Shown here: piece by piece, positions 1 to 62,289 of the stretch
Numbering within the stretch: the stretch's first letter is position 1
Layout: each line of letters opens with the position of its first letter
From: Candidatus Omnitrophota bacterium
GTDB taxonomy: Bacteria; Omnitrophota; Gorgyraeia; S143-82
Direction: 5' to 3'
Length of the DNA stretch: 64,000 nt
Assembly: GCA_015494465.1 (NCBI GenBank)
Contig: WGBD01000001.1
Location: 180,477-244,476 of the forward strand
Translations under genes and position numbers: made by a program
Notes under the pieces: model-generated
The model's database searches: none
Told to the model about the DNA's origin: nothing
What the model saw: the letters and a program-made list of their open reading frames with translations, nothing else

Positions 1-63
1 TAAAAAGGCCAAAAAGATCCTCTTTTTAACCCTCATCTCTCCCCCCTTCAAATGTAGACATCA

Positions 64-141: not shown

Positions 142-195
142 ACATACGCACTCACGATTTTAACAAAAAAGCGCTATCCAGTCAACGCTATCGGT

Positions 196-1339: not shown

Positions 1340-1342
1340 ACT

Positions 1343-2131: not shown

Positions 2132-2132
2132 T

Positions 2133-2684: not shown

Positions 2685-2689
2685 AATCC

Positions 2690-6045: not shown

Positions 6046-6137
6046 AGTAATTCATACCACAGCCCGCCCACATCTTCAATCACAAAAGCACCTCTTTTCC
6101 CGAAATTCTCCCGCTTGCCGTAATCATTGTTTACCCC

Positions 6138-6167
6138 AAACAAAAAAGGCCTCGCGAAAGCGAGGCC
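6138..6167 (-). terminator. intrinsic (rho-independent) terminator downstream of pckG
   Basis: On the minus strand, a GGCCTCGC-TTTC-GCGAGGCC perfect 8-bp GC-rich hairpin is followed immediately by TTTTTTGTTT, 28 nt after the pckG stop. Confidence 0.65.
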
Positions 6168-6194
6168 GTCGACGAGGGAATCTACCCTTCCGAC

Positions 6195-8096: not shown

Positions 8097-8233
8097 ACAC
8101 CAACCTCCTTTGGCCTGACGTCCTTACGCCGTGTGCCGGGAATCAGAGGGTAAAACGAACCCGTTGTCCCTTGCACCGCATTTTTGAAGGGACTGGCGGT
8201 ATTTTATTATAGGAAAAGGGAATTGTAAAGGCG
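8097..8233 (-). promoter_or_regulatory. pckG 5' region: Shine-Dalgarno AAGGAGG (8103-8110) and candidate sigma70-like -10 TATAAT (8206-8211) on the minus strand
   Basis: The minus strand reads ...TTTACAattcccttttccTATAATaaaatacc... upstream of the RBS. The -35/-10 spacing is non-ideal, so the promoter call is weak. Confidence 0.3.
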
Positions 8234-39635: not shown

Positions 39636-40538
39636 TCAACGGAATCCGCCGAACACATCTCCTTTCATAAACTTTAAAATAACCGGTCCTGCTACCACTA
39701 TAAGTATAACAGGAAGGATAAAGAAAAGCAAAGGGAAAAGCATCTTGATAGGGGCGGTCATCGCCGCCTCCTCCGCCTTCATTATCCTATACACGCGCAT
39801 CTCGTTTGCCTGTATGCGCAGGATCTCCCCTATAGGGGTCCCCATCTTATCTCCCTGGATCAGGGCCCGAACGAATGACGACACCTCAGGCATATCCACC
39901 CGCCAGGCCATGTGCCTAAGTGCCTCGGCACGGGATCTTCCCATCTGGATCTGGCGCCAGACATGTGAGAGCTCCTCAGTAACCGCACAGGGTTTGTAGT
40001 CCCTAACCACCCGTTTCACCGCCAACATAAAGTCCATACCCGCTTCCACGCACAGTTTTAGCAGATCTATCACATTGGGAAGCTCTCTGGATATCTCTTT
40101 TCTTCTCTTGGCAATCCTATTGTTAAGCCAAATGTCCGGTAATATAAACCCTATGAACACCAATAGGATAGCGAGATCTGGCGAAGGGAGGTTGCCGATC
40201 AGGAGATAATACAATACGGGCACCAATAACAAAGAGAGCTCTTTGATCGCCATGAACTCGTTGACGGTAAGCGGAACATTAGCGGTAATAAGTTTACGGT
40301 TTATTTTTCTCTTAAGGTTGCCTAAAGGAAGAAGATCGTTTAGATTGGCTATTGGTCGCAGTAGTAATAAAAGTGCCTTCCAGTGTCCCCTAAGGCTGGC
40401 CAGTGAGCGTATGGCCTCCTCTTCGGACCACTCTTCGAAACGATGTCTTATTTTAGTATCTACCTTTCTGGAATAGAGATAACTGTACATCATCGCTGTC
40501 ACGAATAAAAAAATAGAGAGAACTACTAAAACTATCAT
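39636..40538 (-). CDS. tadC: Tad pilus assembly inner-membrane protein TadC-like (T2SS F-domain family)
   Basis: 300 aa with an N-terminal TM, a cytoplasmic T2SSF-type helical domain, and C-terminal TM helices (LFPLLFFILPVILIVVAGPVIL). It is paired with a TadB-like gene. Confidence 0.7.
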   Translation of the reverse strand: MIVLVVLSIFLFVTAMMYSYLYSRKVDTKIRHRFEEWSEEEAIRSLASLRGHWKALLLLLRPIANLNDLLPLGNLKRKINRKLITANVPLTVNEFMAIKELSLLLVPVLYYLLIGNLPSPDLAILLVFIGFILPDIWLNNRIAKRRKEISRELPNVIDLLKLCVEAGMDFMLAVKRVVRDYKPCAVTEELSHVWRQIQMGRSRAEALRHMAWRVDMPEVSSFVRALIQGDKMGTPIGEILRIQANEMRVYRIMKAEEAAMTAPIKMLFPLLFFILPVILIVVAGPVILKFMKGDVFGGFR

Positions 40539-40542
40539 ATTG

Positions 40543-41397
40543 TTAGACCTCCACCTTCCCCATGACCCTCATCGTAATCAATCCCAGTATCTGAGATACA
40601 ACCGCATATACCAAAAGCAATTGCCCAGTAGGATCTTTAAAGAATATGTCGAAGTGATGTGGATCTTGGTGGATGACGAACATCACAAAGAAAATCGGCA
40701 TAGCGCTTATAATCATCCCCTGCCAGCGCGCCTGAGCAGTCAAGACCTCTACCTTTCTCTGAAGCATCTTCTTTTCTCTGATCATCTGGGCCAAATTGGA
40801 AAAGATCTCCGTCACATTTCCCCCCGTATCCCTTGCTACGAGGACCGAGATAACCACGATGTCTACATCGTCGTTCCGTATGCGTGCCCTAAGCCGATTT
40901 AGCGCCTCTTCTAAAGGGATCCCCATCCTGAGTTGTTGGAGGATCAAGGCAAACTCTTCCCGGGTTGGGGACGGCATCTCTTCTACGACGACCTCAAAGG
41001 CCTGCCGTAAAGTTAGTCCTGCCTTTAAAGCTGACGACAATAGGGCCAAGGTATCCACGAGTTGATCAACAAACTGTTTTCTCCTTCGCTCTTCAAGGGC
41101 CCTTACCACGAACACAGGCAGGAGGGCCCCAACCGCTGCTCCTAGCAAAGCAAACAAGGGATTTGCAAAGAGAAAAAACACTATTATCCCGCCTCCGACC
41201 ATCGACAACACATATAGCATATTCAGGGTCTTTCGTTGTACGGGAAGGAGCATGCCCTCAAGAAGAGCCTCGGTCTGACGAATTTGGGCCTCCCGAACCC
41301 TAGAGTATCTATGCGCCACCCCCGGAACTAACAGCAGAGTAAGTGAGGCCACTGACCCGGCTATCAAAATGAGGATAACAATAAGAAAAGGATCCAT
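40543..41397 (-). CDS. tadB: Tad pilus assembly inner-membrane protein TadB-like (T2SS F-domain family)
   Basis: 284 aa with T2SSF-domain signatures (ALKAGLTLRQAFEVV...; ARDTGGNVTEIFSNLAQMIREK) and an N-TM, helical domain, C-TM topology. Confidence 0.7.
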   Translation of the reverse strand: MDPFLIVILILIAGSVASLTLLLVPGVAHRYSRVREAQIRQTEALLEGMLLPVQRKTLNMLYVLSMVGGGIIVFFLFANPLFALLGAAVGALLPVFVVRALEERRRKQFVDQLVDTLALLSSALKAGLTLRQAFEVVVEEMPSPTREEFALILQQLRMGIPLEEALNRLRARIRNDDVDIVVISVLVARDTGGNVTEIFSNLAQMIREKKMLQRKVEVLTAQARWQGMIISAMPIFFVMFVIHQDPHHFDIFFKDPTGQLLLVYAVVSQILGLITMRVMGKVEV

Positions 41398-41416: not shown

Positions 41417-41659
41417 TTAATTATTGTTTATCCGAAGAACTCCTTTGGTAGGACCTCCACCTCCGGAAATATCATCCGCGCTAACTTCGCCAAAGACCGA
41501 GACCACCGCAGATCGATTGCGACCCAATAATATAGATTTAAACAAATTGGCCATGACTACGATACCCATTATTACCGCAACACTTAGTACCATGTATTCT
41601 ATAAAACTAAAACCTCTACGGTCGTTATCGTGCAACGATCTACTCTGCATCCTTACCAT
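41417..41659 (-). CDS. Flp/pseudopilin-like small protein with class III signal peptide (G/FSFIEY)
   Basis: The ORF track extends it to 41779, overlapping the upstream gene. The internal ATG at 41659 gives MVRMQSRSLHDNDRRG|FSFIEYMVLSVAVIMGIVVMANLF, a G-X4-EY prepilin motif followed by a hydrophobic helix. Confidence 0.5.
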   Translation of the reverse strand: MVRMQSRSLHDNDRRGFSFIEYMVLSVAVIMGIVVMANLFKSILLGRNRSAVVSVFGEVSADDISGGGGPTKGVLRINNN

Positions 41660-41670
41660 AAACGCCGTCC

Positions 41671-43344
41671 TTAATTGCCTTGGATCCACCAATTGTTCGT
41701 AGTTGGACCTCTGTGCTTTTTTGCGTAATATCGAGCCCGGGTAGTAAAGCAATAGCCATTCCTGCAAGCCCTTACCCATACCACTTGCTTACAACGCTTC
41801 ACCTTTATCTTAACCTTGGTAAGTTTCTTCTTGACCTTTATCTTAGGCATCTTGAAACTCACTCTCACCTCAAGAGAGTGACGCCTCCCTAACTTATCCC
41901 TCCAAGAATATCTAAAATCATTACCCCCGACAGCATAACTTCCCTCACCAAATGCTTTCATAAGGAGGTCCCTATACTTATTTTCTATCTGGTTTATCCT
42001 GTCCATAAACCTATCCATAGAGCTGGAAAAGGCCATCAGACTAGCGATCAAACGCTCCTTGAGTTTGGTATACTGCCACTCAGTCATATATACATCTTCT
42101 CCCTTGCTGGTTCTCTCGTATATATCTCTAAGCATCTCTAAATAATTACTCCCATGTACGAACTTCTCTGCGTGGCTTCCTACCATTAAAGGACTTACCG
42201 TTGAATTAGAGACCACCTTTACGCGCCCATACCTGCGGATTTCCTTCCAACCACTCCCCGGTCCAAACGAACGAACTCGCTGAATACTATATGTACCTTT
42301 TAGATCACTATTTCTTATCGTGTCGACAGCGATATTAACGAAGCGCTTCATCCGCTCAAAATCCCGCGAGAACTGACCATCCTCGTCCTGCTCCTCAGGA
42401 TCCCAGTCTTTAATAACCTGCAGAGCCTGGACTGGGTCTACCTCTTTTTTAGCTAGGGCCCACATCAACCCCGCTAGGCTCATCTCTGGATTGGTTCCTG
42501 CCCCGCCATATAGTACCGCACGAAGGTAATCAAAGCTCGAGAGACTAAGAACGGGGTTGACTTCATCTTCGTCCGGCTCTATTGCTTCCGTATAATAAGC
42601 AGGCTGATCCATGTTAGTCCCTGCCAGCTTATCCCACAAGCTTAAGGCCTCAAGGAGATCTTCTATCCACCCTCCTTTACCAGGTGAACCAGCATACCCA
42701 GGCAAGCCGGAGTAATAATAGTAAGCCTTTATGATCTCTTTTCTCATTGATCCCAGAACGCCGTCTAATCCGCCATTATTATTACTCCCTGCGGATCCAT
42801 TTATAGCTGCCTCCAGGGCTTCGCTCAGTTGGGGAATAACTTCTGGATCAGCCAAGAGCTGTGCCACATAAGAGATAGTACTCCAACGAAGAACATCCCT
42901 CACGTTGGATAATCGTTTAAAGGCAGCCCTGAGCCTTTTGACAGCCGCATTCGTAACGACCTCATCCGCTACGAATGTAGCCAAACCTGTTGTTGAAATG
43001 GCTAAGGCCCAATTAAGACCTACTATGCCGAACCCCCCTAAGAAGCCACCTAATATAGACAGCCCTAGGCCTACAATAGCACCCCACCTCCTCTTTTTCT
43101 TCTTACACTTACACTTCAGATACTTACAAGCCAAGTAATGGGCATAACTGCCCACTATTGATCCCAAATACATCGCCCCTGCATCGGCGGCTATTTTGGC
43201 CTTGGTCTGGAAGTATTTTTTCTGGGCATAGAATATCCCTACAGAACCGAGAAAGAACATAACCGCCATAACTAACAGCAGTACAGCCGCTATCTGCCCA
43301 GTCTTCTTCTTCAAGCCATAGGGCATTATGTCACTTATCCTCAT
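41671..43344 (-). CDS. TadG-like pilus-associated protein with N-terminal pseudopilin-type anchor and Cys/Lys-rich segments
   Basis: 557 aa. The N-terminus KKKTGQIAAVLLLVMAVMFFLGSV resembles the TadE/TadG N-terminal domain. It also has unusual CKYLKCKCKKKKRRW and C-terminal KRCKQVVWVRACRNGYCF cysteine clusters. Confidence 0.45.
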   Translation of the reverse strand: MRISDIMPYGLKKKTGQIAAVLLLVMAVMFFLGSVGIFYAQKKYFQTKAKIAADAGAMYLGSIVGSYAHYLACKYLKCKCKKKKRRWGAIVGLGLSILGGFLGGFGIVGLNWALAISTTGLATFVADEVVTNAAVKRLRAAFKRLSNVRDVLRWSTISYVAQLLADPEVIPQLSEALEAAINGSAGSNNNGGLDGVLGSMRKEIIKAYYYYSGLPGYAGSPGKGGWIEDLLEALSLWDKLAGTNMDQPAYYTEAIEPDEDEVNPVLSLSSFDYLRAVLYGGAGTNPEMSLAGLMWALAKKEVDPVQALQVIKDWDPEEQDEDGQFSRDFERMKRFVNIAVDTIRNSDLKGTYSIQRVRSFGPGSGWKEIRRYGRVKVVSNSTVSPLMVGSHAEKFVHGSNYLEMLRDIYERTSKGEDVYMTEWQYTKLKERLIASLMAFSSSMDRFMDRINQIENKYRDLLMKAFGEGSYAVGGNDFRYSWRDKLGRRHSLEVRVSFKMPKIKVKKKLTKVKIKVKRCKQVVWVRACRNGYCFTTRARYYAKKHRGPTTNNWWIQGN

Positions 43345-43583
43345 CTCCGATCCTTCCTAAACTCATAAAAGGAAGAGCCCTTATAAGGCAAAGAAATCCT
43401 CGGCAAGCTACTCCCAGGAATCCGGCGATAAAAGATTAACCTGTACGCCCGAAAGCGCTTGTTCATATCAAACGACACCCAACTTATAAAAGAAACCATA
43501 GCGCTTACGAAAAGCGCCAATACTGCAACCGCTATTATGGTATCCAATAACACCTGTCCTTCGTTACCACGAGAAACTCTCAT
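43341..43583 (-). CDS. TadE-like minor pilin / pseudopilin (short)
   Basis: The internal start gives MRVSRGNEGQVLLDTIIAVAVLALFVSAMVSF, a class III-like signal plus hydrophobic helix. The longer track ORF (to 43631) overlaps the upstream gene by 68 nt. Confidence 0.45.
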   Translation of the reverse strand: MRVSRGNEGQVLLDTIIAVAVLALFVSAMVSFISWVSFDMNKRFRAYRLIFYRRIPGSSLPRISLPYKGSSFYEFRKDRR

Positions 43584-44532
43584 CTCCACTACTCCACTCG
43601 TAGCTTTTTGTGCCAGTCCTACTCTCCACATCCCTGTGAATCGTGTAGGGCCCTGTAATCCTCAGCCTCCCGTGGTCACCGTTCACTACAATCTCTGCAG
43701 AGCGTTTATCTCTTTCCACATAATTGTTCCTAAACAGACCCGATAAAGAGTCAAGATCACCCCGCCAGCTCTCGTGCTCAAGATAGTTTATGAGAGAAGA
43801 AATCTCCCCTGGCACATAAGAACCATAGGCAGAATAGAGGACATCCTTCAACTTTTGGAGTTGGTGCTGCCTTTCCCCTGGCGAAAGATTTGCAAAGCTC
43901 CTTTGCACTCCATCCCACTGCTCTAGCCAGTGCCTCACCCTCTGATATACATAACTATCTGCCCCAAAGTCATCCTCTATTCTTTCCAATATCTTCCCTT
44001 CGCGATTCGCTATCTCCTCGTCCGGGGACACGCTTAAAACCAAAAACTGCCCTTCTCTTCCCCGGAGATCGCTCGGCAGCAGTCCTGCTATATTGGGAGG
44101 AGGTAAACCTACTAATTGCCGAGATACATTTTTGCCATCCATGATTATCTTTACTAATGTGGCAGGTTGATCGGGATCGTCGTCGTGCTCCTTCCAGAAC
44201 ATATTCCATGACCAGATAGCACTTGCGGTATCTCTAATTTCACGATAAGCGGGGAAGAAAATATTCAACAGAGATGGGACCCTTCTGTGCTCTATAGCGA
44301 TTTGCATTACTGGTGCCCCTGTGGTCCCCGCGCTAGCGGCAAACTTAACGGTCTCCACAAAATTCCTAATCATCAAATCCTGACGATATACCAAAACAAG
44401 GACATACGAGACGAAAACCGAAGCGATCATCAGTATTATAGTGCCCCAGATAGACAGCTCTACTAAGGCCTGCCCCCCACACGGCTTTGTTCCTCGTACG
44501 GCTGGATCATATCGATGCCTCATATGTCTCAC
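43564..44532 (-). CDS. TadE/TadF-like pseudopilin with large C-terminal domain
   Basis: 322 aa. ...KPCGG|QALVELSIWGTIILMIASVFV matches the TadE N-terminal consensus (G-x-A-x-VE + TM helix). Confidence 0.5.
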   Translation of the reverse strand: MRHMRHRYDPAVRGTKPCGGQALVELSIWGTIILMIASVFVSYVLVLVYRQDLMIRNFVETVKFAASAGTTGAPVMQIAIEHRRVPSLLNIFFPAYREIRDTASAIWSWNMFWKEHDDDPDQPATLVKIIMDGKNVSRQLVGLPPPNIAGLLPSDLRGREGQFLVLSVSPDEEIANREGKILERIEDDFGADSYVYQRVRHWLEQWDGVQRSFANLSPGERQHQLQKLKDVLYSAYGSYVPGEISSLINYLEHESWRGDLDSLSGLFRNNYVERDKRSAEIVVNGDHGRLRITGPYTIHRDVESRTGTKSYEWSSGDESFSW

Positions 44533-44875
44533 TCACCGTCTCCTTCACTTCTTCATTAGCACTTACATGTTCGAGAAGGTCAGAGCTAGCAGCTCCTTCG
44601 TTAACGGGAACAAAATTATGGTATGTAACGACATTCCTGGAGATAGTGCGCTTATATTGAACAGTTCCATCCTTTCCGAAGGGCTTATGTCCCAAACTGG
44701 AGATGAGGCTGTATATCCTGCCTGCAGAAGAGCGTTTCAGGTAAGGCATCATCAACATCACTGCTGCGGTTATCACCATTATAAGCACGGTAATCTCTAC
44801 CGCCGTCTGTCCTCCGCTGTCTCTTTCACATAGACTCTCTAATCGTATTGGATGTCGAAGAGGTAGTCTCAACAT
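44507..44875 (-). CDS. flp: Flp-family pilin paralog (long leader; start uncertain)
   Basis: ...RDSGG|QTAVEITVLIMVITAAVMLM: G/XXXXE motif followed by a hydrophobic helix. The 5' end overlaps the upstream pilin by 50 nt, so the true start may be internal or non-ATG. Confidence 0.5.
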   Translation of the reverse strand: MLRLPLRHPIRLESLCERDSGGQTAVEITVLIMVITAAVMLMMPYLKRSSAGRIYSLISSLGHKPFGKDGTVQYKRTISRNVVTYHNFVPVNEGAASSDLLEHVSANEEVKETVSETYEASI

Positions 44876-45146
44876 ATCTTGCGTGCCCTTCAGATATCTG
44901 GAACTTGCTTACGGTGGTTTGTTTCACTCCGGAAACGGTATTCTCGTTTATCGTGACCCCAATCTCTGCTTCGTCTATCGACTCAACTCGTTGAGTTTTC
45001 AATCCAACTGCCACGAACAGGTCCCTTATCTTTGCTTGTACACCGCGACGATAATAGGTCTGCATAGCAAATATCGCTCCCACAATCGCCAATACCAGGA
45101 CCGCGTACTCAGCTATGCTCTGTCCCGACTTTTCCCCTGCCCGCAT
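44826..45146 (-). CDS. flp: Flp-family pilin paralog (106 aa)
   Basis: MRAGEKSG|QSIAEYAVLVLAIVGAIFAM: a canonical class III signal with E+5, Y+6. Confidence 0.65.
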   Translation of the reverse strand: MRAGEKSGQSIAEYAVLVLAIVGAIFAMQTYYRRGVQAKIRDLFVAVGLKTQRVESIDEAEIGVTINENTVSGVKQTTVSKFQISEGHARYVETTSSTSNTIRESM

Positions 45147-45151
45147 TTATC

Positions 45152-45328
45152 CTATTCTCCTACCCTAATATCGGCGGTTTTGGAGATATCCCTAATCACA
45201 GCTGAAAACTTACCCCGAGCAGAATATAAAACCAAAATAAGGGCTGCGCAGACCGCCCCAACAAAGAGGGCATACTCAACTACTGCTTGCCCAGGAGATC
45301 GCCTACGCCATCTCTTACCAATTCGCAC
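45152..45328 (-). CDS. flp: Flp-family pilin paralog (about 58 aa, probable GTG start)
   Basis: The track ORF 45152..45427 overlaps the upstream gene by 113 nt. An in-frame GTG at 45328 gives (M)RIGKRWRRRSPG|QAVVEYALFVGAVCAALILV, matching the family leader pattern. Confidence 0.45.
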   Translation of the reverse strand: MRIGKRWRRRSPGQAVVEYALFVGAVCAALILVLYSARGKFSAVIRDISKTADIRVGE

Positions 45329-45662
45329 CTTCGGTAATAGATTGTAAGTTGTCAACTTTGACCCCATTGTACCACTCCGTCTGATTGCTCTCGAAAGTAG
45401 TATAGTCTGTACGCTTCTCACCCCCACTGTAGGTCGTCTGGGTGGTTACAGACTCAGTATCAAATTCCTTGTGATATACAACCTGACTCTGACTTGCATC
45501 AGAGTAATCCCACAACTTACCTCCGCCTATCTTCTCGGCAGATTCCCGAGACTTTCCTTGAATAGCCCGCTTAAGATACCCCTGCATGAGGAAGATTGCC
45601 ACTGCGACTATCATGAATAGCACCACGACCTCTATAGTGGATTGCCCTTTTCTCATGGCCAT
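45315..45662 (-). CDS. flp: Flp-family pilin paralog (115 aa)
   Basis: MAMRKG|QSTIEVVVLFMIVAVAIFLM. Confidence 0.6.
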   Translation of the reverse strand: MAMRKGQSTIEVVVLFMIVAVAIFLMQGYLKRAIQGKSRESAEKIGGGKLWDYSDASQSQVVYHKEFDTESVTTQTTYSGGEKRTDYTTFESNQTEWYNGVKVDNLQSITEGANW

Positions 45663-45691
45663 ACCTCCCTTTTCAGGTTATCCTGATCAGA

Positions 45692-46057
45692 TCAATAATT
45701 CCCGAGGGCATCGTCCCCTTCTTGGACTTCATAACTACCCGATTCGTATTCCACATGTGAAAACTGGTTGCTAAGGGCATTTATGTTCTTATCCAAAACT
45801 ACTTGGGAGTTCTGCACTACCTGTTGGTTTATGTTCTTCGTTTCGTAATAAGGCACATACTGAAACTTATCGCCTGCCCCCATACCCAAGGCATTTCGCA
45901 TCATATGTACCATACTATCTTTTTGCCTGGCCTGCAGTGCCCTCTTCACATATAACTGCATAGCCACCGCTGCACCGATGATTATGGCAAACAAGGTAGC
46001 GTATTCCGCTACGCTCTGCCCTCTTTTACTGGACAAGTTCATGAAAGCCATGGCCAA
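45692..46057 (-). CDS. flp: Flp-family pilin paralog (121 aa)
   Basis: ...SSKRG|QSVAEYATLFAIIIGAAVAM. Confidence 0.65.
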   Translation of the reverse strand: MAMAFMNLSSKRGQSVAEYATLFAIIIGAAVAMQLYVKRALQARQKDSMVHMMRNALGMGAGDKFQYVPYYETKNINQQVVQNSQVVLDKNINALSNQFSHVEYESGSYEVQEGDDALGNY

Positions 46058-46073
46058 CCTCCTCTTTAAGAAT

Positions 46074-46240
46074 TAGTTATTACTGCTAGGCGGACTAGTA
46101 TCCACCATTTTACTGAATAAAGCCATCCTGCCATTCACCGCCCGCATAGCGAACTGATACATCACCGTAAAGGCGGCGGCTACTATGAGGAATAAGACCA
46201 CATATTCTGCCATGCTTTGACCTATCTTCCCCACTCTCAT
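46074..46240 (-). CDS. flp: Flp-family pilin paralog (55 aa, not in ORF track)
   Basis: Hand translation: MRVGKIG|QSMAEYVVLFLIVAAAFTVMYQFAMRAVNGRMALFSKMVDTSPPSSNN. Its ATG overlaps the TGA of the upstream gene (ATGA). Confidence 0.6.
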
Positions 46241-46380
46241 GGGCACTTGCTCCCTTTGGTCAAGTCCGCGTGCACGCAGGAATCCATCTTAACAAAGAAC
46301 GAGGTTATTGCCCCAACCGCTGCTGCCACGAAGAGACTCATTATTATTGCGTATTCTAACAAGCTTTGCCCCTTAGACAT
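46237..46380 (-). CDS. flp: Flp-family pilin paralog (47 aa, not in ORF track)
   Basis: Hand translation: MSKG|QSLLEYAIIMSLFVAAAVGAITSFFVKMDSCVHADLTKGSKCP. It starts 2 nt after the stop of the upstream pilin. Confidence 0.6.
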   Translation of the reverse strand: MSKGQSLLEYAIIMSLFVAAAVGAITSFFVKMDSCVHADLTKGSKCP

Positions 46381-46382
46381 AT

Positions 46383-46721
46383 TCATTGAAACAACTTCTC
46401 TTTGTTCAATACATCGAACTCTTTATCCTCGACTCGATTTTCTACATAATAATCGTACGTCTTTGTCTCCACACCTCCCTTGCTCATAGTGATGCTATAT
46501 TCTGCCTTCACATTCTGCACCACATTGAATTTTGTCACATGGTCCGGGCTAAATTGCTCACCCACACTATCTCCGCTTTCTTTTAATCGAGCCATTATAG
46601 CCCTTCTAACAAAGCGGTTCATGGTAAGCACAGCAGCAGCAACAATCATAATAAGCACCACTATCTCTATGGCAGATTGTCCCTTCCTTCTCAATGCTTT
46701 TTTTGAAGCCCTTCCAACCAT
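46383..46721 (-). CDS. flp: Flp-family pilin paralog (112 aa)
   Basis: MVGRASKKALRRKG|QSAIEIVVLIMIVAAAVLTM. Confidence 0.6.
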   Translation of the reverse strand: MVGRASKKALRRKGQSAIEIVVLIMIVAAAVLTMNRFVRRAIMARLKESGDSVGEQFSPDHVTKFNVVQNVKAEYSITMSKGGVETKTYDYYVENRVEDKEFDVLNKEKLFQ

Positions 46722-46747
46722 AGCTTCCTCCCCCTATCCTATTAAAC

Positions 46748-47122
46748 TTACAAAGTTTCGTTCCATCCCCAATCGCTTATATCGGTATTCCCTGCAACCC
46801 CAAGGGTGTTTTCATAACCACTGGTGATTTCCGTAACACTCTGGGTATGTGAAGCGGTCTTTCCTTCCCCGACGATGTTAACCCAACCACTCTGATTGCT
46901 CTTAGTAGTAAGTTGGGACTCTGTATAATACGGCTCGAACTGGACCGTTCCATCCAAGGTCCCATTTCCTGTGTTCACAAGGTGATTTAATACCACAAAG
47001 CGAATAGCCCCTTGCTGGCCCCTCTTTATGAAGATATTCATAGTAGTCACCGCAGCTACCACTAGGAGTATCAAGACTGCGTATTCCGCAGTGCTTTGTC
47101 CCTTTTTATCACTCAACTTCAT
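46748..47122 (-). CDS. flp: Flp-family pilin paralog (124 aa)
   Basis: MKLSDKKG|QSTAEYAVLILLVVAAVTTM. Confidence 0.65.
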   Translation of the reverse strand: MKLSDKKGQSTAEYAVLILLVVAAVTTMNIFIKRGQQGAIRFVVLNHLVNTGNGTLDGTVQFEPYYTESQLTTKSNQSGWVNIVGEGKTASHTQSVTEITSGYENTLGVAGNTDISDWGWNETL

Positions 47123-47161
47123 GGCCTCCCCTCCTTAAACTCTCCACACTCTCAAACTCCC

Positions 47162-47332
47162 TTAATTCACCTGTATCTTCCCTATAGCCTTCGTCATGTT
47201 TTCGGTTAATCCGTTGTAACTGCTTTTGACTTTTGTCTCCAACTGGGCCTTCACTATTAATATAGCTGCGATGATGCCCGCCAAGATCAAGAGGTACTCC
47301 ACTATACTCTGTCCCCTTCTGCTCCTTTTCAT
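47162..47332 (-). CDS. flp: Flp-family pilin (56 aa, first gene of array, not in ORF track)
   Basis: Hand translation: MKRSRRG|QSIVEYLLILAGIIAAILIVKAQLETKVKSSYNGLTENMTKAIGKIQVN. Canonical Flp size and motif. Confidence 0.65.
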   Translation of the reverse strand: MKRSRRGQSIVEYLLILAGIIAAILIVKAQLETKVKSSYNGLTENMTKAIGKIQVN

Positions 47333-47546
47333 GTCCCTCCTCCTCTCGTTTTGGGTCCCATCTTACTATTGCCCAATGGGTTTTGGCCCTAATTTGAATC
47401 GATTAATTAATATTTTCAAATTTCCAAATTTTAACCGCGCAGAGAAAGAGCAAGCCTAAGCCTCTCAACTGCTTATTTCAAGTATAGACGCCATCCCTTG
47501 AGAAGTCAAATTCGCCAGCGCCCCTAAACCTAAACACAACTTTAGT
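47333..47546 (-). promoter_or_regulatory. AT-rich intergenic region upstream of the pilin array (candidate promoter/operator)
   Basis: 214 nt between the hldD stop and the first flp gene. The minus strand reads ...GGTTAAAATTTGGAAATTTGAAAATATTAATTAATCGATTCAAATT..., with AAATTTG direct repeats and an ATTAATTAAT palindrome. Confidence 0.3.
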
Positions 47547-50014: not shown

Positions 50015-51085
50015 TCACCTGCTCATTATCTGGGTGAGGCTAAAAAGCGGGAGGAACATCGCAATTACGATAAAGCCCACCACCACTCCCATAAAGACTA
50101 TGAGAAACGGCTCCAGAAGTGAGGTAAGAGAAGACACCATCAATTCCATCTCCTCCTCGAAGATTTCCGCTACCTGGGAGAGCATCGGAGCCAACTTCCC
50201 GGTTTCCTCCCCAAGACTGATCATCTCCACCACCAACGGCGGGAAAAATCTCACCTGCGTACGAAGATAAGAACTTATCTCATCCCCTTCTTCCACGATA
50301 AATATCAACCGCTGTAGCAATGCCCTATAGACCTCGTTTTCTATGGTCCCCCTGGTTACGCTGATCGCCTCTACGATGGGAACACCGCTGGCCAGAAGCG
50401 TACTAAGGGTCTGGGCAATCCTTCCCACATAGAACCTCTTAAACAACCCTCCTATACCCGGTAATAACAAGATAAATTCATCCATCTTGTAGCGCACCCT
50501 AGGGAACCTTCGCAAGAAGGAAATCAGCCCGAAGACCCCTACGATAAACAGAGCACCGATCCACCAACTCTCGCGTACGAATTGAGAGGCCCCTAATAAC
50601 AGTCGCGTTGGCAAAGGGAGGGCCTCTCCGTATTCGCGAAACATCTTCATGAAAGAAGGCACGACGAATCCCATTATTATCAAAAGGATGACCAAGGCAA
50701 CCAATAGGACGAATACAGGATAGGCCAAGGCAGATATTATCTTCTTTTTGGTGCGATGCTGGTTCTCCAGAAAAGAGGCCAATCGCAAAAATATCTCGTC
50801 CAGAGATCCACTGGCCTCAGCCACCTTTACCATGTTTACATAGTAGACCGGAAAGATGGAAGGATACCTAGCAAGGGCATCCGAGAGCTTGTCACCCTGT
50901 TCGACCTGTACCGCTAGAGAGGCCACGATCCCGGCAAAGGCGCGATTCGTCAGCTGAGAGGAAAGGGTGTGAAGGGCCCGTACCAGTGGGATGCCTGCCC
51001 TCAACATCACCGCCAGCTGGCGGGTAAAATAAATAAGTTGCCCAGCGGGTATCCTGCTGGGCAACTTTAGGAATCGCAGATCCAT
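50015..51085 (-). CDS. pilC: type IV pilus / T2SS platform protein PilC/GspF family
   Basis: 356 aa with two T2SSF-like repeats (AGIPLVRALHTL...; SGVPIVEAISVT...) and three TM segments. Confidence 0.7.
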   Translation of the reverse strand: MDLRFLKLPSRIPAGQLIYFTRQLAVMLRAGIPLVRALHTLSSQLTNRAFAGIVASLAVQVEQGDKLSDALARYPSIFPVYYVNMVKVAEASGSLDEIFLRLASFLENQHRTKKKIISALAYPVFVLLVALVILLIIMGFVVPSFMKMFREYGEALPLPTRLLLGASQFVRESWWIGALFIVGVFGLISFLRRFPRVRYKMDEFILLLPGIGGLFKRFYVGRIAQTLSTLLASGVPIVEAISVTRGTIENEVYRALLQRLIFIVEEGDEISSYLRTQVRFFPPLVVEMISLGEETGKLAPMLSQVAEIFEEEMELMVSSLTSLLEPFLIVFMGVVVGFIVIAMFLPLFSLTQIMSR

Positions 51086-51099
51086 GTCTAAGGGGCGAA

Positions 51100-52365
51100 C
51101 TATCGCACCCTATCTCCAGGCTTTATCTCCTCACTACCGTACAGCTTGATGATGTCTGCTGCACACACGTTGTCCTTTAGCATTCGTACTCTTACCCGCG
51201 CTATCTGTTTATCCCCCCGCAAGACATCGAACTCCATACCCTCTACTACCCCGTCCTTCTTGCCCAGATCTATCACCACGAAGTTGTGCGCCTCGTTAAC
51301 GCTCAGGATCTTGCCCTCCAGCTTCAACCCCGTATTCACCACCTTCTCCTCAGCCACGGCCGATCCCGACTTGGCTGAACCCACTACTATCGGAGGCAGG
51401 TCTACGACCTGGCTCTTAGCCAACGACTTGGAGGAAGTAGCCTGCATGTCCTTCATCTTCTCCGCCAAGGTCAAGATCTGATCTATGCTCTCGCGCACCG
51501 CGGTATCCATGTCCTCAAGATACCGCTTTAGCAGTTCCTTTTCCTCCTCTGTCTTCGATAGCCTTTTCTCTAGGTAAGTCTCCGACTTGGTGAGCTTTAT
51601 CACCTTATCCTTTATCAGACGGTTCTCTTGCTCCATCTTGTCCAATATCTCCTTCATGGCTCTACGATTCTCTTTCTCTTTTACGAAGTCGCGGGAGAGG
51701 ATGGCCAACATCCTACGGGCATAGTTCAACTGACGCTCAAGCTCCTTGTTTTTCAACTCGGTCTGGGCAAGCTTTATCTCTAGCTCTAACTTCTTTTGTA
51801 AGGCCTCTTTCCTCTCGACCTCTTTCTTGCGAAGCTGATTCTCCAATTCCTCGACCTTGGCCTCGAGCTCTGCCTTTTTCTGAACCACATCTGCCCAGAA
51901 TGGGTCAGCCTCTAGACCCGAAGGGCTAACCTCAGAAGACACCTTACGCTTAGGCCTGCTCTTCAGATCCTCCAGCTCCTCTTTCAGATCCGCCAGCTCC
52001 TCGACCTTCTTCTCGTACTTCTCTCGCAAGTCCTCTAGATCCTCTTGGAGAGCGGTCTTCTCTTTAGCCAGGGAATTGTACTTCTCCTCCAGGTCCTTTT
52101 TCTCCAACTTGAGGGACATTATCTGCCTCTTGTAGCTCTGGATGTCCTTCTTTACCTTCTGGAGTTCCTCACTGATCTTTTTCTTCTCTTGTTCCACTGC
52201 CTGTTTCTGACGGGCGAGTTCGGATATCTTGGCCTCGTATTGGCGACGCTGGGAAAGGAGTCGGGCATGCTCGTTCCGATAATCCATGTAGAACTTGATG
52301 CTGATGCCACCTAGCGCTAGGACTAGCAAAAGGAAAAGAACTATTACTAACTTGACTCTTTCCAT
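51100..52365 (-). CDS. membrane-anchored long coiled-coil protein with small C-terminal beta-rich domain
   Basis: N-terminal TM, about 300 aa of heptad-rich K/E/L sequence, and a C-terminal of about 70 aa (FVVIDLGKKDGVVEGMEFDVLR...IKPGDRV) that is OB/SH3-like. Confidence 0.45.
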   Translation of the reverse strand: MERVKLVIVLFLLLVLALGGISIKFYMDYRNEHARLLSQRRQYEAKISELARQKQAVEQEKKKISEELQKVKKDIQSYKRQIMSLKLEKKDLEEKYNSLAKEKTALQEDLEDLREKYEKKVEELADLKEELEDLKSRPKRKVSSEVSPSGLEADPFWADVVQKKAELEAKVEELENQLRKKEVERKEALQKKLELEIKLAQTELKNKELERQLNYARRMLAILSRDFVKEKENRRAMKEILDKMEQENRLIKDKVIKLTKSETYLEKRLSKTEEEKELLKRYLEDMDTAVRESIDQILTLAEKMKDMQATSSKSLAKSQVVDLPPIVVGSAKSGSAVAEEKVVNTGLKLEGKILSVNEAHNFVVIDLGKKDGVVEGMEFDVLRGDKQIARVRVRMLKDNVCAADIIKLYGSEEIKPGDRVR

Positions 52366-52455: not shown

Positions 52456-53676
52456 TCACAGTTGGGCAAAGACATTTCTCATAACGAGGCTAGCAGCCCC
52501 TAAGGCGACCGCATTTTCCCCTAACCGCGAAGGCATTATCCTAGCCACTGAGGCCATCTCGTGAAAGGCCCAGGAATCCACCACCTCTCGCACGGTATCT
52601 ATTAGCTCACTCCCTAGCCTCTCTATCCCCCCTCCGACGACTACCACCTGAGGATTGAGCAAGTTCACCAACAAAGCGCACTTCAGGCCTAGACACCTGG
52701 CCTTCTCTCTTACCACATCTCTCACCAAGGGATCCCCTTGCTTCATGGCCTCCACGACGAGATCGAAGGTAATCTTATCCTTGTTCCCCTCGCAGAGAGT
52801 CATCAGGGGGGTAATGTCCTCCCGCTTTATCTGGAGCCTTTTCTTCAACTCCCTCACTATACCCATGTCCGAATCAGGACGCCCCAGAAAACAGGAATCC
52901 TTGGCCACTGCACTTTGTTCGGGGTTGTAAAGCGTAAGTTCTCCTGCGCATCCACTGCTTCCCCTGTATAGGTCGCCTCCTAGTATCATCCCACAGCCCA
53001 CACCGGAAAACAGGTATATCAGATTCTCTACCGAGGAGTCCATGTAGAACCAATACTCACCAAAGGCAGCTACGGTGGCGTCGTTCTCGACCAGCGTGGG
53101 CAGGTTGAACTCCCTCTCTATGTACTCCTTCAAAGGCACGTATATCGAGACATACTCGTACTCGTCTTCGGAGATCCTCTCGGGCCACTTTATAGCCCCG
53201 CTCTGCCTATCCACTATCCCACCTATCCCTATCCCAATCCCCTTTATCTTGGACTTATCTCCCTCGAACTTCTCCAATACCTCCCTGACCAGGTCCTTTA
53301 TGGTGGCAACGATGTCCCTTATCTGCATCTTATCAGGAGTGCGTTTGGCCTGAGAGAGGATCTGACCGTCTATGTTGGTCAGGACCGCAGTGAGGTTATT
53401 CATGTTGACCCCAACCCCTATCACATAGCTGGCATCGGGATTCAGGTCCAACAGCACCGGGCGCCTACCACCCTGGGAGATGTCCAGCTCCTTCTCCACC
53501 ACGAAGTCGTTCTCTAGAAAGTGGTTGATGTAGTTGGTCACGGTAACCACATTTAAACCGACCATGTTGGAGATCTCGGCCTTGGTGAGTGGACCGGCCT
53601 TGCGCAGTGTCTCCAAGATGGCCACATTACGCCTGGCGCGTTCGTTAAAGCGAGTTACCTCTTTTAGAGAATCCAT
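52456..53676 (-). CDS. ROK-family transcriptional regulator (NagC/Mlc-like)
   Basis: N-terminal HTH (ILETLRKAGPLTKAEISNMVGLNVVTVTNYINHF) plus a ROK sugar-kinase-like domain with glycine-rich motifs. Confidence 0.7.
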   Translation of the reverse strand: MDSLKEVTRFNERARRNVAILETLRKAGPLTKAEISNMVGLNVVTVTNYINHFLENDFVVEKELDISQGGRRPVLLDLNPDASYVIGVGVNMNNLTAVLTNIDGQILSQAKRTPDKMQIRDIVATIKDLVREVLEKFEGDKSKIKGIGIGIGGIVDRQSGAIKWPERISEDEYEYVSIYVPLKEYIEREFNLPTLVENDATVAAFGEYWFYMDSSVENLIYLFSGVGCGMILGGDLYRGSSGCAGELTLYNPEQSAVAKDSCFLGRPDSDMGIVRELKKRLQIKREDITPLMTLCEGNKDKITFDLVVEAMKQGDPLVRDVVREKARCLGLKCALLVNLLNPQVVVVGGGIERLGSELIDTVREVVDSWAFHEMASVARIMPSRLGENAVALGAASLVMRNVFAQL

Positions 53677-56404: not shown

Positions 56405-57691
56405 TCAATCGACCAGACTACCCAGCTCCTTTTCTTTCTCTGCCATAGTGGGCGAGGTCCACAGCGTCTTCAACACATAAAAGCTCTTCCTCGGCTTGCG
56501 TATGTTCCAACCGTGCCGGGGATCCTTCTTCCTAGAGATTGCGATTAATCCCCACCACTCTTCGTTCATGTTCAGGTTGTGATCACAGGCGATGTCGTGA
56601 TAATATCCACCGCAGGACCAATCTCCCTTCTTGTCGTGTCGCCACCAGCTCTTTGGGTCGAACACATTGCTCTTCCACCACTCGTCCGTCCACTCAAAGA
56701 CTATCCCCCCCACGACATTTCCTCTGCCCGTACCCACCGCAAGGTTCCTCTCTATCTCTTTCCACAAGGCGGCTATGTACTCCGCTTGGATGTCCTCGTT
56801 CTCTTGCATGTGCAGGGCATCGAACGCGTCTGCTCCAAACTCCATCACGAAAAATGGCTTCCGGGGACAATACCTGGCCACATCTCTCCACACATGCCCA
56901 AAGCTCTTGCCAGTAAACAGGTTTAGTCCCAAGATGTCTATGTGCTTGCAGATCCTACCCGCCACCTCCAATCCTCGCGTACCACCGTTACCCATGGCCA
57001 CCAACCTGTCGGGATCTATCCGCTTTATCTCCTTGGCCAGGGAGTCTACGAAGGAGTAATATATCTCCGCCTGCCGTTCCCTCCGACGAGCAGGGTCCCT
57101 GATCTCCAAAAGTTCCTTAGTAATCCAGGGATTCACATTCTCGGGGCCAAAAGAATAATTATTCTCGTTGCCCAACACCCACATGATGATGCCAGGCTCG
57201 TTTTTCAAGGCCTTGACCATCCGCAGGACATCCCGGCGGACCTTCCGGCGGAACTTTGGGTCCCCGTAATTGGGGTTGTCCCAAAACCCCAGCCAGTGCC
57301 CCATTATGGTGTAGATCCCGTACTCTTTATAGAGCTTGTGGATAAACCTCTTGGTGGCCTTTATGTCCTTGCTAGGCTGGTAGAATCGGACCACATTTGC
57401 TCCCAATTCCTTCAATAGAGGGCCATCAACATCCAATATGGAGGGATGGGCAAAGATGTCGAACTGCCAGTTCTTCCCAATCGGTATAGGCTGATAGACC
57501 ACCCCCCGGATGATAAACGGTTTACCGTACACATACAAAACGCACCCTTTGGAGGTATGTTTTATCTCGGAGATAGCCGAATTACCGACTAGCCCAAGGG
57601 GAAATAGGAATAAAAATAACACGAGGGCCCTAACCAGGGCCCTCGCTCCGTTCAAACGCGAACTATCGGATAACCTATTATTCACCCTCAT
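56405..57691 (-). CDS. clan GH-A glycoside hydrolase (GH2/GH5-like TIM-barrel catalytic domain)
   Basis: Signal peptide. Acid/base-type motif IIMWVLGNENNY (cf. GH2 WSxxNE) and nucleophile-type VMEFGAD. Confidence 0.5.
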   Translation of the reverse strand: MRVNNRLSDSSRLNGARALVRALVLFLFLFPLGLVGNSAISEIKHTSKGCVLYVYGKPFIIRGVVYQPIPIGKNWQFDIFAHPSILDVDGPLLKELGANVVRFYQPSKDIKATKRFIHKLYKEYGIYTIMGHWLGFWDNPNYGDPKFRRKVRRDVLRMVKALKNEPGIIMWVLGNENNYSFGPENVNPWITKELLEIRDPARRRERQAEIYYSFVDSLAKEIKRIDPDRLVAMGNGGTRGLEVAGRICKHIDILGLNLFTGKSFGHVWRDVARYCPRKPFFVMEFGADAFDALHMQENEDIQAEYIAALWKEIERNLAVGTGRGNVVGGIVFEWTDEWWKSNVFDPKSWWRHDKKGDWSCGGYYHDIACDHNLNMNEEWWGLIAISRKKDPRHGWNIRKPRKSFYVLKTLWTSPTMAEKEKELGSLVD

Positions 57692-58841
57692 AGATTATGT
57701 CGTCTAGATAAAAGGTGCAACCGTTGGGATTCACATCCATGTTGGTCACCCAGCAGAAACCACCTATGATGTAGGACATGTCCTTTCCGGAGAGGTCTAT
57801 AGTGTACTTCTTCCATTCCTTGGTCAAGACTATGGGACCTATTTCAGCGCTGTCGGAATCGGAATACTTGTCCTGGATACCTCCAACCTTGAACGCCTCT
57901 ATCCTCTCTCCGCCTTTTTCTCCTCTGGCCCAGAAGGTGAGTTTCTTGGCCTTGCTCAGGTCGTAACCTGCGTCTATCTTTCCCCAGTTGTTGGCCGGCT
58001 CGAGCCAATACACCCCAGCCCAACGGGCACCCCTGGAACCCTGAGCAGTGTAGGTGAACTTTATACAGGTGTCCCCACTGTGAGGATCCTCCTCACAGGC
58101 ATCGTCCATCTTTATGTCGCTATAATCCCCCATGAACCCAGAAGGTACGAAGTGATTCTTTAAGGATCTCTTGTCGATGTAGACCGCAAACGGCATAGGC
58201 TCCGGACCTTTGACCTCCGCCTTGAGAGTGGGATCGTATTCGTAACGGATGTCGTCAAGGTAGAAGGTCGCACCGTCGGGATTTTGACCTGCCTGCAGTA
58301 CGAAGGCAAATCCACCGCTGATGTAGGACAGATCCTTGCCAGCCAGGTTTATCTCGTACCTCTGCCACTCGTCGCTAAGCTGGATAGGACCGATGGATAC
58401 CTCGGTGGAATCCGGGTAGAGCCCCTTGATCCCCCCTACCATAAACTTGGCTACTATCTCGTCCCCGTATTCACCTTTTGCCCAGAAGGTCAACTTGTTC
58501 ATCGAAGAGAGATCGTAACCTCCTAGCTTGGTCCCCCAGTTGTTGGGTGGGTTCTGCCAATATACGCCAGCCCATCCCTGCCCTTGGGACTTGTCAGCGG
58601 TGTAGACTACCTGGATGCAGGTCTTCCCAGAATGGACATCCTCGGTGTAGGCATCGTTGATCCGGATGTCTCCGTAATCGCCCATGTAACCAGACGGCAC
58701 ATAATGGTTGCTAGGATCACCCTTATCCGTATAGACATTAAAGACCTTGCCTTCAGGAATCTTTATCCCCTGGGGCTTCTCAGCGTAAACCACACCACCC
58801 AACCCAAGGCACAGCACCGCAAACGCCAGCAATCTCCGCAT
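57678..58841 (-). CDS. secreted protein with tandemly duplicated carbohydrate-binding-like domain
   Basis: Signal peptide, then two ~170-aa internal repeats sharing NH(Y/F)VPSG(Y/F)MGDY.DI...D...ED.HSG.TCI...YTA...G..WAGVYW..P.NNWG...GYDLS...KLTFWA.GE.G. Confidence 0.5.
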   Translation of the reverse strand: MRRLLAFAVLCLGLGGVVYAEKPQGIKIPEGKVFNVYTDKGDPSNHYVPSGYMGDYGDIRINDAYTEDVHSGKTCIQVVYTADKSQGQGWAGVYWQNPPNNWGTKLGGYDLSSMNKLTFWAKGEYGDEIVAKFMVGGIKGLYPDSTEVSIGPIQLSDEWQRYEINLAGKDLSYISGGFAFVLQAGQNPDGATFYLDDIRYEYDPTLKAEVKGPEPMPFAVYIDKRSLKNHFVPSGFMGDYSDIKMDDACEEDPHSGDTCIKFTYTAQGSRGARWAGVYWLEPANNWGKIDAGYDLSKAKKLTFWARGEKGGERIEAFKVGGIQDKYSDSDSAEIGPIVLTKEWKKYTIDLSGKDMSYIIGGFCWVTNMDVNPNGCTFYLDDIIYEGE

Positions 58842-58944
58842 ATCAGCACCTCCTCTTTCTTCCCGTCACTCTACCGACTTCCTAATTTAACATTCTATCC
58901 CAATCTCCTCTGAAAGTCAAAAATGGATTTAAACTTTTTTAAAA

Positions 58945-60852: not shown

Positions 60853-61420
60853 AGCTCTGCTCCAGTTTTTCTATCTTGCCCTTGGCCTCTTCTGCGACCT
60901 TCCAATACCAACCTCTAGGATCCCAGTTCTGGGCCAGAGGGAACTCCTTGATCGCCCTGCGGTAGTACTCTATGGCCTTCTGGCAATCGCCCTTTTTCTC
61001 GTAGGCCTCTGCGACGATGTAAAGAGCAGCCCCACAGGCATTTAGTTCGGGATAGTCCTTTTCCTTCCCCGTCTGAGGGAACTTTCCCCCCAGAGACCTC
61101 TGCTCCTCCTGGGCCTTGGCGTAGAACCTGGTCAGGATGGTATTGCTTATCTCTATAGCGGTATCCAAGGCCCCAGCCCCCAGGGCGGACCAGGCCTCGT
61201 TGACCAGCTTATCCGCAGGCAGGCTCTGGAGGGCCTCTTGAGCGATCTCGTACTTTGCCTCCCTCTTGACCTCGTCTTGATGGATCAACTCTTTAGGATC
61301 GAACTGCGGGGCCCCTTTACCCGCAGGGGGAATCTCGATGCGGGCAAACATGTCTTCCTTCCCCCTGCATCCAGAGAGCAAAACGACCCCTAATATGAGG
61401 AACACCCCGAGATAGCGCAT
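60842..61420 (-). CDS. TPR-like lipoprotein
   Basis: Lipobox LLSGC, and helical repeats with an AEAYEKKGDCQKAIEYYRRAIK TPR-like consensus. Confidence 0.45.
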   Translation of the reverse strand: MRYLGVFLILGVVLLSGCRGKEDMFARIEIPPAGKGAPQFDPKELIHQDEVKREAKYEIAQEALQSLPADKLVNEAWSALGAGALDTAIEISNTILTRFYAKAQEEQRSLGGKFPQTGKEKDYPELNACGAALYIVAEAYEKKGDCQKAIEYYRRAIKEFPLAQNWDPRGWYWKVAEEAKGKIEKLEQSCEK

Positions 61421-61422
61421 GT

Positions 61423-62277: not shown

Positions 62278-62289
62278 AGTTGTGCCCTT

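Follow-up and report, generated by a model that had tools for sequence, protein, structure and literature searches.

The Omnitrophota comprise ultra-small bacteria that have not been cultured and probably live as predators or parasites; they carry giant genes that rank with the longest on record. The locus around these genes was termed 'type II secretion system-like' by West-Roberts et al. 2023 (bioRxiv 10.1101/2023.11.21.568195), who devote a single sentence to "small genes with class III signal peptides"; such Omnitrophota systems were classified as Tad by TXSScan (Seymour et al. 2023, PMC10066038), and a 2026 preprint has repeated the census of the flanks. No paper that dissects the pilin array was found in the literature, and within the machinery that accompanies the giant genes, no unannotated part is larger than the pilin block. 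Here we describe one instance of the published locus, in a stretch of 64,000 nucleotides (the window) from a Candidatus Omnitrophota bacterium (contig WGBD01000001.1, positions 180,477 to 244,476 of the forward strand). Ten small prepilin-like genes (p1 to p10, minus strand, 47332 to 44507) are followed on the same strand by four further pilin-like genes, and we consider it likely, with a probability of about 0.7, that this 14-gene block encodes the pilin set of an Omnitrophota Tad-like (type IVc-like) filament machine, as a fixed heteromeric kit. The RcpC-secretin-ATPase module of the published locus is not adjacent here.

The Kil predation pilus of Myxococcus xanthus consists of one major and 14 minor pilins, and the minor pilins include four TadE/F/G-like tips and two Flp-sized adapters (Herrou et al. 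2025, PMC12075869). Judged by this description of Kil and not by sequence homology, it appears to be the closest experimentally studied analogue, and its multi-tip architecture is paralleled by the one proposed here. Both belong to a (likely) predatory bacterium with a Tad-type machine and combine one Flp-like major pilin with many minor pilins (15 pilins in total in Kil, 14 here), Flp-sized adapters, repeated sets of paralogous minor pilins and large TadG-like pilins with novel C-terminal domains. There are clear differences: the Kil tips are KilL/M/N trimers with homology to TadE/F/G, and their genes are spread over four clusters, whereas our locus repeats an A/B pair of long subunits within one contiguous operon, and similarity to TadE is almost absent (one of 138 members of the pilin family, E<0.01). 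Kil also has a type III secretion partner (T3SS*), while there is none here and a giant open reading frame (ORF) is found instead.

The canonical Flp/Tad systems (A. actinomycetemcomitans flp-tad, Caulobacter Cpa, P. aeruginosa Flp) share with the locus the G/xxxxE(Y) signature, a split TadB/TadC platform and Flp-sized, all-helical subunits (p1, p4, p5 and p8); RcpC, an RcpA-type secretin and TadZ and TadA domains are shared as well, in related Omnitrophota loci only. However, they have one to three flp genes plus tadE/F/G in place of 14 pilin-like genes, and they differ from our locus in its invariant glutamine at +1 (Q+1), its Flp_Fap and TadE scores, all below threshold, its six subunits with an extra C-terminal domain of about 50-70 amino acids that carries conserved motifs of its own, and the fusion of TadZ to TadA in related loci.

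Archaeal class III (EppA-dependent, Epd) pilins (PF04021, QxSxExxxL) are similar in Q+1, E+5 and L+9 (seven of the ten array proteins) and in a threonine at +3, present in most of the wider family. PF04021 (Class_IIIsignal) is also the most frequent weak Pfam match of that family (37 of 138 members at E≤0.01, followed by Flp_Fap with 19, DUF4244 with 18 and TadE with one), and the platform genes weakly match archaeal UpsF and BasF. The differences to Epd pilins are the bacterial host, scores of about 15 bits against a cutoff of 23.7 bits and the presence of a secretin and RcpC in related loci. In archaeal Epd pilins, Q+1 is converted to pyroglutamate. The resemblance to these pilins may reflect no more than an archaeal ancestry of Tad systems, which Denise et al. 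reportedly proposed in 2019. Pseudopilins of the type II secretion system (T2SS), GspG-K, are comparable in that several different prepilin-like subunits are encoded in one operon; GspK is a large pseudopilin without E5, and a 557-amino-acid protein encoded downstream of the array would be its E5-less equivalent. No matches to GspG-K families were obtained, and the split platform is of the Tad type.

In the ORF listing, p1 to p10 form a run without interruption; the start codons used are those nearest to a ribosome-binding site. Every one of the ten proteins has a short basic leader of 4-22 amino acids (at most 26 in p8, if its called start is used) that ends in glycine and is followed by glutamine, a glutamate at +5 and about 20 uncharged residues. 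In the alignment of the ten, G-1, Q+1, E+5 and one alanine of the helix are invariant, and the first three remain so in all 138 family members. The G/xxxxEY motif of Flp/Fap pilins is present with EY in seven proteins and with EI or EV in p3, p7 and p10. A class III signal, in the sense of a short basic leader with Gly or Ala at -1 and a stretch of some 20 uncharged residues with Glu at +5, is found in the ten and also in p11 and p12, two of the downstream genes. When a regular expression for the signature plus an uncharged stretch of 14 amino acids was searched, the 64-kb window gave 12 matches, all of them on the minus strand in one operon, and 50 codon-shuffled windows gave none. ORFs, alignment and motif specificity thus confirm the initial annotation, which had seen ten consecutive small prepilin-like ORFs with a class III signature, and in signal and architecture the array proteins conform to what defines a type IV filament pilin. 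The leader motif had been given as (K/R)G/QS(x)(A/I)E(Y/I/V), and this needs only minor amendment: (K/R)G precedes the glutamine in six proteins (IG, PG, SG and GG in the remainder) and QS is present in eight. Translation signals are mostly easy to recognise, with clear Shine-Dalgarno sequences for p1, p2, p3, p6, p7 and p9 and ATGA stop/start overlaps for p4 and p5; p8 and p10 each overlap the gene before them.

Not all array proteins are longer than a canonical Flp pilin, as had been stated for most of them: six are long (98-116 amino acids when mature) and four are Flp-sized (43-49 amino acids). The first of the four, p1 (47162-47332; this and all following coordinates of the cluster are on the minus strand), has 56 amino acids, the leader MKRSRRG/QSIVEY, a mature length of 49 amino acids and a strong Shine-Dalgarno sequence (GGAGGAGGG); it is Flp-sized and promoter-proximal and a candidate for the major pilin. 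The adjacent genes p4 (46237-46386, 49 amino acids) and p5 (46073-46240, 55 amino acids, MRVGKIG/QSMAEY) overlap the stop codons of p3 and p4, respectively, with ATGA. The fourth, p8 (45152-45367, ..RRRSPG/QAVVEY, mature protein of 45 amino acids), overlaps the 3' end of p7 and its start is uncertain, with a total length of 57-71 amino acids: the ATG at 45367, which is the database call, results in 71 amino acids, and the alternative is a GTG near 45325-45330. The p4 protein has a conserved C-terminus (MDSC-x10-CP), with counterparts at 7458-7607 of contig L007 and 1624-1773 of contig L010. This Cys-x10-Cys-Pro could possibly form a C-terminal disulfide loop that recalls the D-region of type IVa pilins and would be unusual for a protein of Flp size.

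The six long subunits are of two types. Type A has the motif QYEPYY and comprises p2 (46748-47122, 124 amino acids, QSTAEYAVL...VQFEPYY), p6 (45692-46051, 119 amino acids, QSVAEYATL...FQYVPYY) and the diverged p9 (44826-45146, 106 amino acids, QSIAEYAVL..MQTYYRRGVQAK). Type B has the motif SADSIGEQFSP, often with E-I/V in place of E-Y, and comprises p3 (46383-46721, 112 amino acids, QSAIEIVVL...KESGDSVGEQFSP), p7 (45315-45656, 113 amino acids, QSTIEVVVL...RESAEKIGG) and the diverged p10 (44507-44875, 122 amino acids, as in the database protein, ..DSGG/QTAVEITVL), which overlaps the 3' end of p9. Hidden Markov models (HMMs) of the two types match these proteins over the full length of the long family, C-terminal motifs included: p2 and p6 reach 102 and 96 bits with the A-HMM and p3 and p7 137 and 100 bits with the B-HMM. 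The diverged proteins are weaker at 42-52 bits (p9: A 52, B 38; p10: B 42, A 25). The gene order of the window, S1-A-B-s-s-A-B-s-A'-B', thus consists of three tandem A/B pairs with short subunits between them.

The initial annotation described the C-terminal parts as unrelated to each other, and pairwise BLASTP indeed gives nothing significant (best E 0.13). At profile level, however, the C-termini of the long subunits belong to one family with the common motifs Q(Y/F)xP and GG...R...RTG, and hhalign aligns type A to type B with a probability of 99.9% (E 8e-32, 97 columns), meaning that the two are homologous over their full length. The short subunits align to this long family over the N-terminal ~63 columns only. 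The family is large: from a library of 1.84 billion proteins, the profile of the ten retrieved 3,796 cluster representatives at E≤1e-3, of which 464 reach E≤1e-10, and many of the representatives have 100-125 amino acids and match over profile positions ~4-110, nearly the whole profile. A second search returned 2,965 clusters at E≤1e-5, virtually none with a Pfam annotation; where the source labels name anything, it is 'hypothetical protein [Candidatus Omnitrophota]' or, from JGI, 'Flp pilus assembly pilin Flp' or 'gas vesicle protein'. The consensus of the family is GQ(S/N)TAEYAILI..V.AA.IAMQ.YVKRG.QGR.KD....Q(Y/F)(E/S)P....GG...R....RTG. By these profile comparisons the six long subunits are a conserved Omnitrophota family of their own, and none of the array proteins is a demonstrable member of Flp_Fap or TadE; the findings are an argument for adding a model of such a pilin family to the domain databases.

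With the profile of the short pilins, the top matches in the PDB are the Flp pilins of Tad pili (8u2b/8ucr with E 0.38 and 8u1k with E 1.3); these are not significant, and the alignments span the whole mature chain of 45 amino acids. For p2, the sole protein in which the fold was examined for an extended N-terminal helix with a small head, AlphaFold2 predicted just this from an alignment of 88 sequences: a helix from residue 7 to 50 (44 residues), with a predicted local distance difference test (pLDDT) of 82-94 over residues 11-40, and then a beta-hairpin of low confidence.

The initial annotation had confined the array to 44507-47332, but four more pilin-like genes follow in the same orientation, down to 41417, and bring the cluster to 14 pilin-like proteins. 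p11 (43564-44523) encodes a large pilin-like protein of 319 amino acids (..PCGG/QALVEL); four relatives were returned by a word-indexed homolog search, and an equivalent of ~310-340 amino acids is kept at the same position across Omnitrophota. p11b (43341-43583, 80 amino acids, ..NEG/QVLLDT) has Asp, not Glu, at +5, and its counterpart in L007 is called as a gene of 80 amino acids. The 557-amino-acid protein (41671-43344) has the pilin-like N-terminus KKKTG/QIAAVLLLV without an acidic residue at +5 and orthologs with 55-63% identity; it is a candidate for a TadG/KilN-like tip subunit. The last of the four, p12 (41417-41659, ~80 amino acids, ..DRRG/FSFIEY), lies just 5' of the gene for a TadB-like platform protein (40543-41397, 284 amino acids), which is followed by the gene for a TadC-like platform protein (39636-40538, 300 amino acids). 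Both platform proteins have a single T2SSF domain (Pfam T2SSF, 70.9 and 53.9 bits, respectively). The same-strand cluster closes with the giant ORF (8234-39601), which encodes 10,455 amino acids with a cysteine content of practically nil (0.0%). Its N-terminus has a Sec-like signal or anchor (MKGRKIFAQFLAIFTSILFIFENISWA) that is conserved in the homolog of L004, there are 15 hydrophobic segments, most of them at residues ~8160-10040, and no Pfam domain was found in the 10,000 residues scanned (1-10,000).

The arrangement is not restricted to this genome. Searched against other genomes, the TadB-like protein retrieves metagenome-assembled genomes of Candidatus Omnitrophota. In L007 (GCA_054005615.1; TadB 91% identical) and L010 (TadB 72%) the ten genes are present in the same order and with near-identical sizes, followed by p11, p11b, the 557-amino-acid gene, p12, TadB, TadC and the start of the giant ORF; the ten-gene pattern is repeated in the more distant L004 (TadB ~50%). 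Six further Omnitrophota contigs with members of the family were compared (L013 to L018), and each has seven to eight small pilin-like genes (three to five short and three to four long), a large pilin-like protein of ~260-345 amino acids in the place of p11, more pilin-like proteins, and then TadB and TadC. The ten small genes of the window are therefore the upper end of a conserved feature of seven to ten genes, and lineage-specific block duplication is the likely origin of the ten-gene state. In five of the six contigs the array is preceded by genes for a peptidyl-prolyl isomerase (PPIase), RcpC, a secretin (T2SS-T3SS_pil_N + Secretin), a ParA/CbiA::T2SSE fusion and DUF192; in L017, as in the window, the RcpC-secretin-ATPase module is not beside the array. 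A giant ORF (at least 3000 amino acids or running off the contig) follows TadC in nine of ten loci, with 30,620 amino acids in L013, 8,591 in L017, 5,224 in L015, 4,303 in L018 and at least 3,024 in L004; in L007, L010 and L016 the ORF runs off the contig end, and L014 has none on the same strand.

Some details of these loci are worth recording. The ParA/CbiA::T2SSE fusion is TadZ-TadA-like and has ~720 amino acids (L013 3872-6043, L014 4244-6403, L015 4501-6660, L016 3359-5542 and L018 6595-8736); the DUF192 gene is next to it except in L018. No Peptidase_A24 gene is present in these five fusion-bearing loci and no TadV was seen in any locus compared. Between the large pilin-like genes and TadB, three contigs have a gene of ~265 amino acids with a match to Pfam PF27226 (AF_1845), a family that takes its name from a protein of Archaeoglobus (L014 13975-14769, L015 13915-14709, L018 13778-14584); a counterpart in the window was not detected. 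Together with the weak UpsF/BasF matches of the TadB/C-like proteins of the window, this gene hints at archaeal-type relatives of the machinery. IS200-like Y1 transposase genes (Y1_Tnp) sit within or beside the Tad-like loci of L015 (17382-17576, between TadC and the giant ORF) and L013 (6540-7022).

The initial annotation had suggested a heteropolymeric filament, and with the genes located directly upstream of a split TadB/TadC-type platform and a giant gene, a multi-subunit filament is still the best reading. It is supported by the five other loci in which the array lies between an RcpC-secretin-TadZ::TadA module and TadB/TadC, a Tad gene set. We infer cleavage, filament assembly, the division into major and minor pilins and the tip complexes as follows. 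All 14 proteins are predicted to start with a prepilin (class III) signal, and an unlinked A24 peptidase would remove the leader behind G-1, so that the mature chain starts with Q+1. The filament core would be packed from the hydrophobic N-terminal helices and their E+5, and the adjoining split TadB/TadC platform would assemble the filament; ATPase, RcpC and secretin of this genome would have their genes outside the window. The likeliest bulk (shaft) subunit is p1, which is closest to the promoter, of Flp size and highly conserved, and p4, p5 and p8 would be further Flp-sized subunits of the 'adapter' type. The A/B pairs p2/p3, p6/p7 and p9/p10 are probably minor pilins, TadE/TadF-like by role, not by sequence; with p11, p11b and the E5-less 557-amino-acid protein they may initiate assembly and build one or more tip complexes through which host or prey cells are contacted.

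Several results weigh against such a pilus machine. None of the ten proteins passes the threshold of any curated pilin HMM (Pfam, NCBIfam), and the assignment to the Flp type made in the initial annotation cannot be upheld in this form: Flp_Fap (PF04964) reaches 16.8 bits with p1 and 14.9 bits with p8, against a cutoff of 32.2, and leaves the other eight unmatched. Flp1_like is best with p1 (19.8 bits, cutoff 33.5), Class_IIIsignal matches p1, p2, p4 and p7 with 14-15.3 bits, and TadE (PF07811) matches none of the ten and one of the 12 sequences of the short-pilin set (the four of the window and database relatives) at E≤0.1; Flp_Fap matched five of these 12 (best E 0.003). All sub-threshold Pfam matches of the array and its wider family do point solely to Flp1_like, Flp_Fap, Class_IIIsignal, DUF4244 and TadE. 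For p11, p11b, p12 and the 557-amino-acid protein, Pfam and NCBIfam yielded sub-threshold or spurious matches only, and p11 and the 557-amino-acid protein matched no family. The initial annotation had named two results that would together speak against pilins, failure in the Flp_Fap HMM and absence of a class III cleavage site; the first was obtained, but the class III site is present. The C-terminal domains fold with low confidence (mean pLDDT of 52.8 for p11, from four aligned sequences), the long-family profile finds nothing significant in the PDB (best geopilin, E 0.38), and Foldseek searches of the PDB with the p2 and p11 models returned nothing at E≤1e-3, which makes the lists obtained meaningless. 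Prepilin peptidase, ATPase, secretin and a GxGDxK-type peptidase motif are all absent from the 64-kb window, and its TadB/C-like proteins match NCBIfam models weakly only (UpsF, BasF and HofC, ~25 bits), with no match of the TadB-like protein to PDB sequences. The case for p1 as major pilin is weakened because a p1-type gene is not first in other Omnitrophota arrays, and an interaction within the A/B pairs is putative.

The main rival explanation is a T2SS-like short periplasmic pseudopilus, that is, not an adhesive pilus but a piston that drives either the giant protein, once exported by Sec, or the glycosidases encoded nearby through a secretin. A set of several pseudopilins is typical of T2SS, the giant ORF starts with a Sec-type N-terminus, closes the cluster and is found 3' of TadC in nearly all loci, and the published T2SS-like label of the locus would also suit. 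However, the split platform, together with RcpC, RcpA-type secretin and TadZ-like domain of the related loci, is a hallmark of Tad and not of T2SS, the array of L014 is complete without a giant gene 3' on its strand, and the giant protein appears to be membrane-anchored, not released, because it has many hydrophobic segments near its C-terminus. We therefore regard a piston as unlikely. Very unlikely, in our view, are small bitopic inner membrane proteins with an uncleaved anchor, for example accessory proteins or chaperones for the insertion of the giant membrane protein: failure of all curated pilin HMMs, absence of a peptidase from the window and poor prediction of the C-terminal domains would agree with them, but an anchor of this kind is hard to square with G-1, Q+1 and E+5 being invariant in 138 proteins and leaves the co-location with platform, ATPase, RcpC and secretin across the phylum unexplained.

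The initial annotation had also considered a variable filament, and the array could accordingly be a repertoire of pilin cassettes that alternate in antigenic or phase variation, or a rapidly diversifying set. The lack of significant pairwise similarity between C-terminal parts would fit, as would the faster change of the long subunits (identity to L007 of 62% for p2, 63% for p3, 67% for p6 and p7, 77% for p9 and 58% for p10) in comparison with the platform proteins (TadB 91%, TadC 95%). Yet each gene has its own start and Shine-Dalgarno sequence or is translationally coupled, and there are 1:1 orthologs in identical order in three other lineages. In a codon-level comparison, the proportion of nonsynonymous differences (pN, 0.02-0.28) is far below that of synonymous differences (pS, 0.4-0.9) in all genes, in N- and C-terminal parts alike. 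Independent samples of one species have arrays that are 99.67-100% identical, with zero indels, as expected for a fixed subunit set, and a scan for DNA repeats found these confined to the 22 nucleotides encoding GQSxxEY (77-86% identity), without recombination-type repeats or invertible elements. Antigenic variation was rejected on synteny, pN/pS and population identity and is effectively refuted: the ten are distinct, individually maintained genes under purifying selection, a fixed set and not a variable cassette. The short subunits are conserved better (identity to L007 of 91% for p1, 90% for p4, 96% for p5 and 78% for p8), and slow short and faster long subunits are the pattern expected for core versus exposed subunits; the faster change of the long ones fits surface exposure.

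An extension of the heteromeric filament, which we consider doubtful, is that the A/B pairs and the large pilin-like proteins are alternative or stacked tip modules whose business end is physically coupled to the giant protein. Pilus or pseudopilus would then present, anchor or extrude an adhesin or lysin of 10,000-30,000 amino acids toward the host cell, and this would account for the association of pilin array, platform and giant gene throughout the phylum; given the conserved adjacency of the giant gene, a physical connection of filament and giant protein is conceivable. New to the locus are the inventory of ten plus four genes, the short and A/B classes with their tandem pairing, the invariant Q+1, the extent of the family, of which almost nothing is annotated in Pfam, and the 1:1 orthology under purifying selection, with variability rejected. 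p1 and the A/B pairs are concrete targets for studies of host attachment.

A sigma-70-like promoter, TTGACT-17-TATACT (47481-47509, minus strand), lies 5' of p1 and is conserved in other lineages. The p1 5' leader (~140 nucleotides) contains an AT-rich palindrome (47391-47422, minus strand; AATTTGAAAATATTAATTAATCGATTCAAATT / GAAATTTGAAAATATTAATTAATCG... on the coding strand) that is near-invariant among the window, L007/L009 and L010/L011, where synonymous sites are saturated; the block with the ribosome-binding site of p1 is conserved as well, like -35 and -10. The palindrome is a likely operator or RNA regulatory element. Rfam detected neither a riboswitch nor another known RNA between 39000 and 50100, with the palindrome unmatched, and a terminator scan found no convincing attenuator after p1.

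Upstream of the p1 promoter are an epimerase gene, a SurA/Rotamase_2 PPIase gene on the opposite strand and a two-domain platform gene of the GspF/PilC type (50015-51085), which belongs to a separate cluster (GspF 340 bits, cutoff 424). The last is next to a gene for a coiled-coil protein of 421 amino acids (both within 50015-52365, minus strand), with a ROK-family regulator gene just upstream (52456-53676), and the trio is kept in L007; the region has the look of a separate type IVa/T2SS-like system, of which it would be a remnant or a part, and the ATPase is not in view. Further upstream (56405-63956, minus strand), there are genes for two GH2/GH72-like glycosidases, a choice-of-anchor J domain protein, a TPR protein and an ABC sugar transporter operon (two permeases and a solute-binding protein), a block that matches the published link of giant-gene loci to carbohydrate degradation and import.

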